Below are positions 1-3,928 of a stretch of DNA of 3,928 nucleotides, piece by piece. Both the position numbers and the translations under genes were made by a program. The notes under the pieces are model-generated. The model had not been told where the DNA came from. It was given only the letters and a program-made list of their open reading frames with translations, and did not search any database. The DNA is taken from NCBI RefSeq assembly GCF_003334315.1, contig NZ_QOWR01000102.1; one strand, 5' to 3'. Position 1 is the stretch's first letter, and every line of letters begins with the position of its first letter. This DNA is from Escherichia coli (lineage in GTDB: Bacteria; Pseudomonadota; Gammaproteobacteria; Enterobacterales; Enterobacteriaceae).

Positions 1-492
1 ATTCCAGCCGAACGCGAACCTCTGCCTGGCGTAAAATTCTCACACCGGGGCTCCAAGATGCGAACACCACATCTTGTGCCACTCAGCAAACAGGCTGTAG
101 CCATACTGACAGAACTTCAGACATGGGCAGGTGAAAATGGTCTGATATTTACGGGAGCACATGACCCGCGTAAACCAATCAGTGAAAACACCGTAAATAA
201 GGCACTGAGGGGTATGGGATATGACACAACCCAGGATGTCTGTGGGCATGGGTTCAGGGCGATGGCGTGCAGTGCGTTAATAGAATCAGGTTTGTGGTCC
301 CGTGATGCAGTTGAACGTCAGATGAGCCATCAGGAACGCAATGGTGTACGTGCTGCTTACATTCATAAAGCAGAACATCTGGAAGAACGCCGACTGATGT
401 TACAGTGGTGGGCCGATTTTCTGGATGCAAACAGAGAAAAATTTATCAGTCCATTTGAATATGCAAAGATTAATAATCCATTAAAACCGTAA
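1..492 (+). CDS. int: P4-type tyrosine integrase (site-specific recombinase), C-terminal catalytic portion; 5' end lies upstream of the window
   Basis: Frame 1 is open from base 1 (IPAEREPLPGVKFSHRGSK precedes the listed Met at 58) to the TAA at 490-492. The translation carries the tyrosine-recombinase box II pattern HGFRAMACSALIESGLW and the catalytic Tyr context VRAAYIH, plus the C-terminal LMLQWWADFLD tail I recognise from P4-like (IntA/IntB-type) integrases. Only ~164 aa are visible, so the gene is partial in this window. Confidence 0.85.
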   Translation: MPAEREPLPGVKFSHRGSKMRTPHLVPLSKQAVAILTELQTWAGENGLIFTGAHDPRKPISENTVNKALRGMGYDTTQDVCGHGFRAMACSALIESGLWSRDAVERQMSHQERNGVRAAYIHKAEHLEERRLMLQWWADFLDANREKFISPFEYAKINNPLKP

Positions 493-537
493 TCCTCCCG
501 GGCAAATGCCCGGGAACTACTCCAGGATTATTTTTTT
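493..537 (+). terminator. Candidate intrinsic terminator downstream of the integrase gene
   Basis: Perfect hairpin CCCGGG-caaatg-CCCGGG (497-514), flanked by a complementary outer pair AATCCT (491-496) / AGGATT (524-529), followed by a T7 run at 531-537. The 9-nt spacer between inner stem and outer pair makes this a non-canonical geometry. Confidence 0.4.
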
Positions 538-660
538 GTTAAAAAAGGCAAAACGATATTAACTGATGTATTAAATGTTTACCGGATTGCTCCCTGCAGG
601 GGGATTATCAGAATCCGCAGTTATTCGTTATTTATATATATTCAATAAAAAGCAACATCA

Positions 661-694
661 TAAAAAATCCCGCACTCACAGGGTGATGCGGGAT
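661..694 (-). terminator. Candidate intrinsic terminator for the minus-strand phosphoethanolamine transferase gene
   Basis: 12-bp GC-rich stem with one bulge (667-679 pairs with 683-694, 3-nt loop). On the minus strand it is followed directly by a T6 run (complement of the A6 run at 662-667). It lies ~120 bp downstream of the minus-strand stop at 812-814. Confidence 0.45.
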
Positions 695-814
695 AACTGA
701 CGTAAGGAATGCTGCCGGGATTTGGTGGTCCCTTGTGCTGATATGAATACAGATTCTATTCTATACAGAATCCTTTTCAGTACAAGAGACTGTATTACTG
801 TTTGCCATATATGA

Positions 815-2281
815 TTACCTGTGGTCCGGAAGAATCAGAGGCTGCGGTTTCAGACTGTCTGCCGGCACATTTTTCTCTCCGTTAAAAACCATAACGGGTT
901 CATTATCTTCGTCTGTCAGCGGATTGAATGGCAGTATATTTTCGGTACGAATACCGGTCAGCCACTGAAAAATGCCTGCGAAATGACGGGCACTGATTTT
1001 TCTGCTGACGGACTGATGAGACGTGATGTCACTGGCGGTAATAATCAGGGGAACGCTGTAGCCTCCTTGTATATGGCCATCATGATGAACAGGATTAGCA
1101 CTGTCGCTGACCGACAGACCATGGTCAGAAAAGTAAAGCATGGCAAAATGACGGGAGTGCCGGCGAAGGATACCATCAAGCTGACCGAGAAAGTTATCCA
1201 GTTTACTGATGCTGGCGAGGTAACAGGCAATCTTTCGGGGATACTGCTCCAGGTAATGATTCGGCCAGGAGTTAAGTCGGTCACACGGATTCGGATGAGA
1301 GCCAATCATGTGCAGGAATATCACCTTCGGAGAGGATTTATCCGCCAGTGCACGTTCTGTTTCCTGTAACAACAACATGTCATCCGTTTTACGGGAAGCA
1401 AAGCTGCCTTTCTTGAGGAAAACGGTATGCTCCGCATCAGAAGCAATAACAGAGATGCGTGTATCATGCTCCCCCAGTTTTCCCTGATTGGATATCCACC
1501 ATGTGCTGTATCCTGCTTTTGCTGCCAGCGCCACCACGTTGTTGCCGGAGTCAGGGTTCTGCTCATAGTCATAAATCAGTGTCCGGCTCAGGGAAGGTAC
1601 GGTACTGGCTGCTGCCGATGTATAGCCGTCAATAAATAAACCGGGAGCCGTATTCAGCCATGGTGTGGTTGGCACGGGATAGCCATATACCGACATATAA
1701 TCCCTGCGCACACTCTCACCAGTAACGATAACAATCGTGTCATACAACGGTGTTCCCGGCAGGATTTTCCAGTTGTCAGCCCCGTGCTGACTCAGTTGTT
1801 TATAACGCTGCATTTCACGCAATGTGTCAGTTGTTCCCACAACAATTCCTTTAACCATCCGCAACGGCCAGCTGTTTACAGAGCATAATACGAATAGCAG
1901 CAGTGCCAGCCAGTTACGGTGACCGCGGTGGTGTGTCCGCCAGAAAATCACCATGAATACCAGAATCGCGGCACTGACCAGAAAATGATAAACAGGAATC
2001 ATCCCGGTAAACTCTGCAGCCTCATCAGCCGTGGTCTGCAGCAACGCGACAATAAAACTGTTGTTGATTTTACCGTACGTCATACCCGCAGGCGCATACA
2101 GTGCACAACAGAACAGAAATAACAGCACTGTAATGGATGTGAGGGTATTTCTGTGTGCAAGGAGAAGAAGGAGAAACAGAAGCAGCACATTTCCTGTGGC
2201 ATTCTTCTCAGTGTATCCGCATGCAATTGTGATTATTACGGAAATGGATTTGCCCCTATATTTCCAGACACCTGTTATCAC
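815..2281 (-). CDS. Phosphoethanolamine transferase family membrane protein (YhbX/OpgE/EptA-like, sulfatase-fold), 5'-truncated by IS2 insertion; likely pseudogene
   Basis: 488-aa ORF with an N-terminal hydrophobic region (several predicted TM segments, e.g. [47 protein letters not shown]) followed by a periplasmic-type catalytic domain. Motifs align with the EptA/MCR pattern as I recall it: [13 protein letters not shown] (nucleophile position), [12 protein letters not shown] (cf. HQMGNHGPAY) and [10 protein letters not shown] (cf. MLYVSDHGES). The first 12 codons (2245-2281), including a GTG start, lie inside the IS2 right inverted repeat, so the native N-terminus (an estimated 50-100 aa including TM1) is missing. 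Native sequence spans 815..2244. Confidence 0.8.
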
Positions 2282-2285
2282 TTAA
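2245..2285. repeat. IS2 right terminal inverted repeat
   Basis: TGGATTTGCCCCTATATTTCCAGACACCTGTTATCACTTAA matches the ~41-bp IS2 right inverted repeat recalled from the canonical element, with one difference I can see (C for T at 2271). Confidence 0.75.
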
Positions 2286-3161
2286 CCCATTACTGGCCTG
2301 CTGCCGCAGATATTCCCGTGGCGAGCGATAACCCAGTGCACTATGCGGATGCCATTCGTTATAATGCTCGAACGCCTCTGCAAGGTTCTTTGCTGCCGTT
2401 AACCCGTCTGGTTTAGGCATGATACTGATGTAGTCACGCTTTATCGTTTTCACGAAGCTCTCTGCTATGCCGTTACTCTCCGGACTCCGCACCGCCGTGT
2501 TCTTCGGTTCAAGCCCCAACATCCGGGCAAACTGCCGTGTTTCATTAGCCCGGTAGCATGAACCATTATCCGTCAGCCACTCTACTGGAGACGCCGGAAG
2601 CTCGTTGCCGAAGCGGCGTTCCACCGCTCCCAGCATTACGTCCTGTACTGTTTCACTGTCGAAGCCGCCCGTAGTGACTGCCCAGTGCAGTGCCTCACGG
2701 TCACAGCAGTCCAGCGCGAACGTGACTCGCATTTTTTCTCCGTTATCACAGCGGAACTCGAACCCGTCAGAGCACCATCGCTGATTACTTTCTTTCACGG
2801 CCACTTTGCCAGTATGTGCCCGTTTCGATGGCGGTACAGCGGTTTTTCGCTCAAGCAACAGCGCATTCTGGCGCATGATCCGGTAAACACGTTTGGCATT
2901 GATCGCAGGCATACCATCAAGTTCGGCCTGTCTGCGAAGCAGCGCCCATACCCGACGATAACCATACGTGGGCATCTCTCCGATAACATGGTGTATACGG
3001 AGAAGCACATCCGTATCATCTGAGTGACGGCTGCGGCGACCATCTTTCCAGTCATCGGTTCGTCTGAGAATTACGTGCAACTGCGCACGCGACACCCGGA
3101 GACAACGGCTGACTAAGCTTACTCCCCATCCCCGGGCAATAAGGGCGCGTGCGCTATCCAC
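2256..3161 (-). CDS. insD: IS2 transposase OrfB (InsD), DDE integrase-like catalytic domain
   Basis: 301-aa [37 protein letters not shown]...NRCLEI, near-identical to the canonical IS2 InsD I recall, with scattered substitutions. GTG start at 3159-3161 immediately after the A6G slippery site. In IS2 this frame is normally expressed as an InsC-InsD fusion by -1 frameshifting. Confidence 0.9.
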
Positions 3162-3484
3162 TTTTTTGCACGCCCGTATTCAACAGCTTCTTTAAGGAGT
3201 TCATTTTCCATCGTTTTTTTGCCGAGCAGGCGCTGGAGTTCTTTAATCTGCTTCATGGCAGCAGCAAGTTCAGAGGCAGGAACGACCTGCTCTCCTGCGG
3301 CCACAGCAGTAAGACTTCCCTCCTGGTATTGCTTGCGCCAGAGAAATAACTGGCTGGCTGCCACACCGTGTTGCCGGGCAACAAGGGAGACCGTCATTCC
3401 CGGTTCAAAACTCTGCTGAACAATAGCGATCTTTTCCTGTGTAGTACGCCGTCTGCGTTTCTCCGGTCCTAAGACATCAATCAT
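3119..3484 (-). CDS. insC: IS2 transposase OrfA (InsC), helix-turn-helix DNA-binding protein
   Basis: The listed ORF (3119..3529) begins with 15 codons inside the IS end. The canonical InsC start is the internal Met of [47 protein letters not shown]..., placing the start codon at 3482-3484 and giving 121 aa. It overlaps insD by ~43 bp, as in IS3-family elements. Confidence 0.85.
3161..3167 (-). promoter_or_regulatory. Programmed -1 ribosomal frameshift slippery heptamer (A AAA AAG) at the insC/insD overlap
   Basis: The minus strand reads GCAAAAAAGTGGATAGC; the A6G heptamer sits in the insC/insD overlap where IS2 and other IS3-family elements are known to frameshift to make the OrfAB transposase. 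Confidence 0.55.
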
Positions 3485-3529
3485 CTGCTCTCCAATGACT
3501 AGTCTAAAAACTAGTATTAAGACTATCAC

Positions 3530-3928
<399 letters not shown>

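Follow-up and report, generated by a model that had tools for sequence, protein, structure and literature searches.

Two predicted Rho-independent terminators between the convergent integrase and phosphoethanolamine-transferase genes of an Escherichia coli tRNA-island module, and a constrained transferase 3′UTR

The Rho-independent terminators of E. coli (d'Aubenton-Carafa 1990, TransTermHP) consist of a GC-containing stem-loop and a U-run, are unidirectional and are found after a stop codon. The two elements described here are built in the same way, but the stem of the plus-strand element is split by a 9-nt bulge, and one form of the minus-strand element, type B, has a stem of only 6 bp. The 3′ end of intB in K-12 MG1655 occupies the homologous position behind a homologous integrase (leuX island) and carries the same CCCGGGCAAATGCCCGGG hairpin. 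Its 3′ flank reads AAUUAUUCU, compared to AACUACUCC in the window, by which we mean the whole 3,928-nt stretch of E. coli DNA that was analysed.

Enterobacterial 3′UTRs also give rise to Hfq-dependent sRNAs such as CpxQ, SroC, DapZ, MicL, and SdhX. The region behind the transferase gene resembles their sources in that a conserved stretch precedes the intrinsic terminator of the mRNA itself, whose U-tail has at least 6 residues, whereas the element in the window resides on a mobile island and is restricted to E. coli. Long bacterial 3′UTRs can be regulatory themselves, as exemplified by the 5′–3′ UTR pairing of icaR and by hilD (review PMC7821165). A length of more than 100 nt, above-neutral conservation and a possible pairing with the Shine-Dalgarno region of its own operon liken the transferase 3′UTR to these. 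The pairing at this locus, however, is predicted, overlaps the terminator stem and has no covariation support.

We consider it likely that the spacer between the two genes carries two unidirectional Rho-independent terminators, one per convergent gene. They are ordinary convergent intrinsic terminators of a common island module, previously unannotated, and a constrained 3′UTR is the sole mildly unusual feature of the locus. By itself, this reading amounts to routine annotation in which the two terminators delimit, at their 3′ ends, the integrase gene and the unit comprising an outer-membrane-protein (OMP) gene and the transferase gene.

The island module and its convergent genes

The window represents an E. 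coli tRNA-island module (pheU, pheV or leuX) that is composed of a P4-type integrase gene, a 322-bp spacer and a yjgX-like phosphoethanolamine transferase gene. The integrase and transferase genes are the only convergent gene pair of the window, and the features of this region are as follows.

1–492, plus strand: 3′ end of a P4-type tyrosine integrase gene, stop codon TAA at 490–492 (open reading frame; the RefSeq homologue is a tyrosine-type recombinase/integrase beside tRNA-Phe or tRNA-Leu).
489–537, plus strand: integrase terminator candidate, with an inner hairpin (496–515), an outer stem (489–495 with 525–531), a 9-nt bulge and a T7 run (531–537).
538–660, no strand assigned: AT-rich spacer with no detectable function (32.5% GC; nucleotide diversity π 0.108; no Rfam match).
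661–694, minus strand: predicted intrinsic terminator of the OMP-transferase unit, with a 12-bp stem containing one bulged G (694–667) and a U6 run (667–662).
695–814, minus strand: 3′UTR of the transferase mRNA, with purifying selection that is most pronounced at 695–745 (π 0.043 versus 0.116 at four-fold degenerate sites).
815–2245, minus strand: yjgX-like phosphoethanolamine transferase gene, stop codon at 815–817 (open reading frame; Pfam PF00884; intact homologues of 499 aa carry the annotation phosphoethanolamine transferase).

Among complete E. coli genomes, about a quarter or more contain the module, and they have it directly after tRNA-Phe (pheU or pheV) or tRNA-Leu (leuX). Matches to the spacer were found in 2,574 of 5,426 genomes, and 1,420 of the 5,426 contained at least 80% of its length. 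The spacer of ATCC 8739, at pheU, is 100% identical to that of the window. The K-12 counterpart is the intB-yjgX region, in which the allele is about 89% identical to the window over the spacer and IS2K is inserted at a position equivalent to about 736.

In intact versions of the operon, a gene for a hek/hra-like OMP comes first and is followed on the same strand by that of the 499-aa transferase. This OMP is a 246-aa beta-barrel whose best match, the adhesin Adr model, is below the cut-off. The integrase matches the NCBIfam PRK09692 integrase domain with an E value of 1e-73, which is under the curated cut-off. The transferase falls under the NCBIfam cut-offs for CptA, EptA, EptB, and MCR (the best score is 111 bits compared to a cut-off of 404) and is thus assigned to a separate, uncharacterised yjgX-like subfamily. 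A literature search for yjgX found no RNA elements. In the window, the 5′ end of the transferase gene is truncated by IS2. The 2236–3928 part of the window contains nested IS elements: the IS2 right inverted repeat is near 2236–2280, and the IS2 left end is cut by an IS1 that starts at about 3531.

The element behind the integrase

A hairpin with a T7 run, which the earlier note had proposed for this spacer, is present as a stem-loop extending from G489 to U531. Its GC-rich inner stem, UCCCGGGC/GCCCGGGA, has 8 bp and an AAAU loop, and its AU-rich outer stem is a 7-bp GUAAUCC/GGAUUAU helix with the 9-nt bulge on the 3′ side. The T7 run abuts this structure, and its first T is the closing U531. 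The minimum free energy is −22.5 kcal/mol compared to −11.6 ± 2.7 kcal/mol in 200 shuffles (z −3.98, 0/200 as good), and the 43-nt hairpin that precedes U6–7 contributes −21.9 kcal/mol. Using a d'Aubenton-Carafa-type score (d-score) with modern energy parameters, we obtained +18.8 for this element on the plus strand, compared to −47 when it is read from the minus strand. The window allele hence displays both a stable hairpin and a U-rich tract, the two parts of an intrinsic terminator. A consensus terminator scan missed this hairpin because its stem is interrupted, and found only the inner 5 bp of the minus-strand hairpin described below; its window-wide count of 6, compared to 3.2 ± 1.8 in shuffles, is uninformative by itself.

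About 72 of 79 copies share the same inner helix, although divergence among the 3′ ends of the integrase genes reaches 27%. The outer stem is mismatched in most alleles, but is perfect and abuts the T-run in the window allele and a few others. The T-run itself is interrupted (TTTTCTTT) in most alleles. One and the same A×G mismatch of the outer stem has been repaired in two ways, by a C at 495 in the window and by a T in the allele that accompanies the type B minus-strand hairpin. The inner stem is broken (−10 kcal/mol) in one lineage of six copies, which includes AR_0089 with an integrase annotated as intact. The plus-strand terminator is therefore non-canonical and structurally atypical. The segment 493–564 (spacer positions 1–72) recurs behind the same integrase on O157, O111, and Shiga-toxin-producing E. 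coli (STEC) islands with unrelated cargo; on a STEC pheU island, for example, the hairpin follows the integrase and ISEc8 comes next.

A 3′ end has been mapped at the K-12 homologue of this element. In MG1655 Term-seq data (Adams et al. 2021, eLife; PMC7815308, supplementary file 1), a 'primary' intB 3′ end is listed at 4497967(+) with a mean read count of 969; it comes from the sheet M63 0.4 (M63 medium), is found in one of three conditions and has a low read count (PMC7815308). The sequence window printed there spans −50 to +10, which we verified on the leuX entry (PMC7815308). The end falls between GCCCGGGAAUUA and UUC, at stop+27, which is 5 nt past the inner GC helix and about 15 nt before the T-run. 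As the data describe the K-12 allele, they support 3′-end formation at the homologue of the window's plus-strand element. The 3′-end mapping that the earlier note had suggested places the K-12 end at the inner hairpin rather than at the T-run. Exonuclease trimming and termination at the inner hairpin are indistinguishable with an end at this position.

This position gives some weight to a different role for the hairpin, that of mainly a 3′-end stabiliser: transcription would stop further downstream, at a Rho-dependent site or at the T-run, and the transcript would be trimmed back to the GC helix, which would thus serve as a barrier to exonucleases and not as the terminator itself. The low d-score of the inner stem alone with its poor U-tail (−28 in the window, −5 in K-12) and the imperfect outer stem of most alleles point in the same direction. 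We nevertheless regard this explanation as rather doubtful, considering (i) that a T-rich run (TTTTTTT or TTTTCTTT) is found at a fixed distance in 19/19 variants of the element, (ii) that a perfect outer stem abuts the T-run in the window allele and a few others, (iii) that two different substitutions repair the same mismatch, and (iv) that trimming after true termination is expected to produce the same mapped end.

The hairpin behind the transferase

The minus-strand hairpin with a 12-bp stem and a T6 run, which the earlier note had located at 661–694, was likewise recovered. It has the structure AUCCCGCAUCAC-CCU-GUGA(G)UGCGGGAU (694–667), with one bulged G and a 3-nt loop, and the first residue of the U6 run that follows the stem is paired. 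The hairpin with its flanks folds to −22.1 kcal/mol compared to −9.6 ± 2.4 kcal/mol in shuffles (z −5.25, 0/200 as good), and to −16.1 kcal/mol alone. Its d-score is +15.2 on its own strand, compared to −57 on the plus strand. The transcribed strand therefore carries a GC-containing hairpin and then a U-rich tract, downstream of a gene on the same strand with which the element is co-inherited: where IS elements have replaced the remaining spacer, the segment 651–814 (spacer positions 159–322) is found with the transferase alone.

Folding of both strands, which had been put forward as a check, showed that both hairpins are far better than shuffles (0/200 each). The fold z-scores, the position at the 3′ ends of convergent genes and the conservation indicate that the hairpins are more than chance structures. 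They are two separate elements that are 130 bp apart. The tails in the opposite sense, GGUUUUAAUGG and AACUGACGUAAGG, give d-scores of −47 and −57. As the scores are positive only in each element's own sense, the signals are unidirectional and do not form one bidirectional terminator. The earlier description of a back-to-back terminator pair is supported by these own-strand scores, by the linkage of each element to its gene and by the K-12 intB 3′ end.

Combining these findings, we propose that transcripts of the integrase gene would end at the composite hairpin and T-run of 489–537, after which the stable CCCGGGC/GCCCGGG helix would shield their 3′ end from exonucleases. Transcripts of the OMP and phosphoethanolamine-transferase genes would extend about 120 nt beyond the stop codon and end at the 12-bp hairpin and U6 run (694–662), and the approximately 120 bp between both signals would be unconstrained filler. 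We infer that RNA polymerase terminates at both signals in this strain.

The minus-strand hairpin begins 120 nt downstream of the transferase stop codon. The distance given in the earlier note is thus correct, but its description as unusually far is not: more than 30% of mapped 3′UTRs exceed 100 nt in S. aureus (PMC7821165), and a Salmonella homologue of the transferase (57% amino acid identity) has an unrelated 3′UTR of about 85 nt that is followed by its own 12-bp hairpin with a T-rich tail. A 120-nt 3′UTR is within the normal range.

Variation of the hairpin was examined in 81 metagenome contigs and in RefSeq loci, for which an invariant 20-mer spanning the stop codon served as the anchor. 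The hairpin exists in three forms. Type A, the form of the window, has an energy of −16 to −19 kcal/mol. In copies with an intact gene, it has three polymorphisms: U·G in place of U-A, U·G in place of C-G, and a substitution of the bulged base. Each of them keeps the minus-sense pairing, and two would produce C·A mismatches if read in the plus sense. The K-12/C type carries C·A mismatches in the minus sense in 31/31 copies (two in 29 copies, one in 2 copies), which results in energies of −6.7 kcal/mol with two mismatches and −11.9 kcal/mol with one. This type is found only with a transferase pseudogene, also in 31/31 copies. Type B has lost the outer stem via a 2-nt deletion and has gained a perfect 6-bp inner stem and U7–8; this stem is weak (−5.3 kcal/mol, d-score −24) and accompanies nine intact genes.

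The nine intact-gene copies with the weak type B form indicate that efficient intrinsic termination is not universal, and type B shows that the strong minus-strand terminator is dispensable. Overall, the pattern fits selection for an RNA helix of the minus sense while the gene is alive, an argument in which the strand asymmetry rests on about 5 substitution events. The minus-strand element can be described as a predicted terminator of textbook structure that is lineage-variable, and it turns over but preserves its form. It illustrates, within one species, both terminator turnover, with intact, restructured, and decayed forms, and a terminator state that tracks the integrity of the gene.

The K-12 Term-seq list (PMC7815308) has no minus-strand 3′ end at the hairpin, which is mutated in that strain and belongs to a unit cut by IS2K. 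A Rho-dependent region at 4498119(−) in K-12 was set aside as uninformative for the hairpin because of very low coverage and 800-nt windows that overlap IS2 (PMC7815308, supplementary file 2). A cross-species comparison was also abandoned: a scan of genome contigs for the transferase gave 4 loci, 2 of which are likely contaminant fragments. The nearest divergent transferase homologues (57% and 52% amino acid identity) have unrelated 3′ flanks. With so few loci and unrelated flanks, the variation evidence pertains to E. coli.

Three loci on pheV and leuX islands (L009, L010, and L014), which correspond to approximately 1–870 of the window, have kept the integrase and the complete spacer, but of the transferase coding sequence only the final 55 nt. 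The remaining part of the transferase gene is replaced in them by unrelated sequence beside IS110 remnants. The hairpin is intact in the KP63- and AR_0089-type copies (L009 and L010, with U-runs of 6–10), and L014 has a weak type-B-like stem.

The transferase 3′UTR and the remaining spacer

Nucleotide diversity was calculated for 22 haplotypes with an intact transferase open reading frame. It is 0.116 at four-fold degenerate sites and 0.047 in the whole transferase coding sequence. The values for the noncoding segments are 0.108 in the middle of the spacer (538–660), 0.088 in the minus-strand hairpin (661–694), 0.019 in the 695–745 part of the 3′UTR and 0.061 in its 746–814 part. As the diversity of the middle is about that of four-fold sites, this segment is interpreted as neutral filler. 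The earlier note had described it as AT-rich and devoid of a convincing open reading frame, which agrees with our results. The only open reading frame of 20 or more amino acids in the middle (575–700, 41 amino acids) was rejected as a small protein since it is interrupted by 1-, 4-, and 5-nt indels in homologous copies. An Rfam 15 covariance-model search of the whole window gave no match at E ≤ 1.

The 3′UTR contains 14 variable columns out of 120, compared to 66 of 196 for the four-fold sites (Fisher p 9e-6), and mosaic recombination may be partly responsible for this low diversity. There is no coding signal in any frame of 695–814; a 30-aa open reading frame at 722–814 was discarded as all six frames share the same synonymous/non-synonymous ratio (4–9 versus 14–18). 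RNAalifold with column shuffles revealed no convincing consensus structure of the 3′UTR on either strand: the minus-sense fold has an energy of −15 kcal/mol with a covariation term of −0.36, and its z-score is about −0.3, compared to about −2.1 for the plus sense. The constrained part, which directly precedes the terminator, is predicted to remain single-stranded over most of its length. An anti-terminator pairing between the repeat at 665–672 and 716–723 was rejected, as no variation supports it. Because it is constrained and has neither a coding signal nor an Rfam match, the 3′UTR may be a regulatory 3′UTR or the source of a 3′UTR-derived sRNA, and we infer that it acts at the RNA level.

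In the sRNA version of this idea, the minus-strand hairpin would be both a terminator and the Hfq-binding end of a 3′UTR-derived sRNA whose conserved single-stranded part (about 745–695) is functional. The sRNA would either be processed from the transferase mRNA or originate from an internal promoter near 753–787, and its candidate target is the leader of its own operon. We find this unlikely. The constraint (π 0.019–0.043 versus 0.116 at neutral sites, p 9e-6), the absence of a frame with a coding signal and a layout in which an unstructured conserved stretch is followed by a hairpin and U6–10 are in its favor, as is the retention of the integrase, the spacer and 55 nt of coding sequence in lineages that lack the transferase, with the hairpin intact in L009 and L010. 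Against it, no Rfam family is matched, and covariation lends no support to a consensus structure on either strand. Promoter-like sites do exist on the minus strand, CTGAAA-16-TAGAAT in a scan and TTGTAC-16-TAGAAT/TAAAAT by eye, but the promoter-like −10 element is weaker in type B, and a 14-nt deletion has eliminated it in L014.

The proposed target derives from the minus-sense sequence of 685–704, which can form 19 bp (−25 kcal/mol, with two bulges and two G·U pairs) with the Shine-Dalgarno region of the OMP gene upstream. The partner in the OMP leader is AGUGAUAGCGGAGAUGAUUGA, and the site is about 30 nt upstream of the OMP start (L007, L013). The complementarity is found in 15 of 17 intact operons and is reduced in a minority leader variant. 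However, the 20-nt stretch includes the 5′ arm of the terminator, so that in type A it is mostly locked in the terminator stem, and the idea is post hoc, with a background of about 2–3 sites of the same quality in 280 kb. This predicted pairing might mediate feedback on the OMP gene at its Shine-Dalgarno region.

In its broader form, the proposal is that 695–814, especially 695–745, together with the terminator may constitute a regulatory RNA, either a 3′UTR-derived sRNA or a cis-acting element, on tRNA-associated E. coli islands; we regard this as improbable. If true, it would explain the retention of the element in lineages without the transferase and would link acquired envelope-modification genes to post-transcriptional control, and a 3′UTR expressed as a discrete species would be an island-borne regulatory RNA.

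Finally, the supposition that the palindromes act at the DNA level (as protein-binding sites, recombination sites or IS targets) or exist by chance, with no role in transcription, could draw on CCCGGGCAAATGCCCGGG being a near-perfect DNA palindrome and on the many IS elements inserted at different points of the spacer, but is barely credible given that each hairpin is flanked by a single T-run, in the orientation of its upstream gene, that the substitutions are strand-asymmetric with G·U tolerated only in the transcribed sense, that an RNA 3′ end maps to one of both hairpins, and that the IS elements have inserted at scattered points between 565 and 860 and not at the palindromes.

The spacer is an IS landing zone, as seen in 493–870 of the window and at homologous positions in L002–L008, L057, and L061. 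Insertion points are located at about 565 (ISEc8), 622 (IS1), about 650 (an IS2 end and an IS3-family element), 697 (IS1), 736 (IS2K of K-12) and 860 (IS3 family). One IS2 end, at 683, is inside the minus-strand hairpin, and the transferase open reading frame of that copy is still intact. A K-12-type intB-downstream spacer followed by IS2 insC/insD is also found in the record of phage Ge15 (L103; PP359696.1, 43783–45143), a T4-like phage propagated on MG1655, where it represents either captured host DNA or an assembly chimera.
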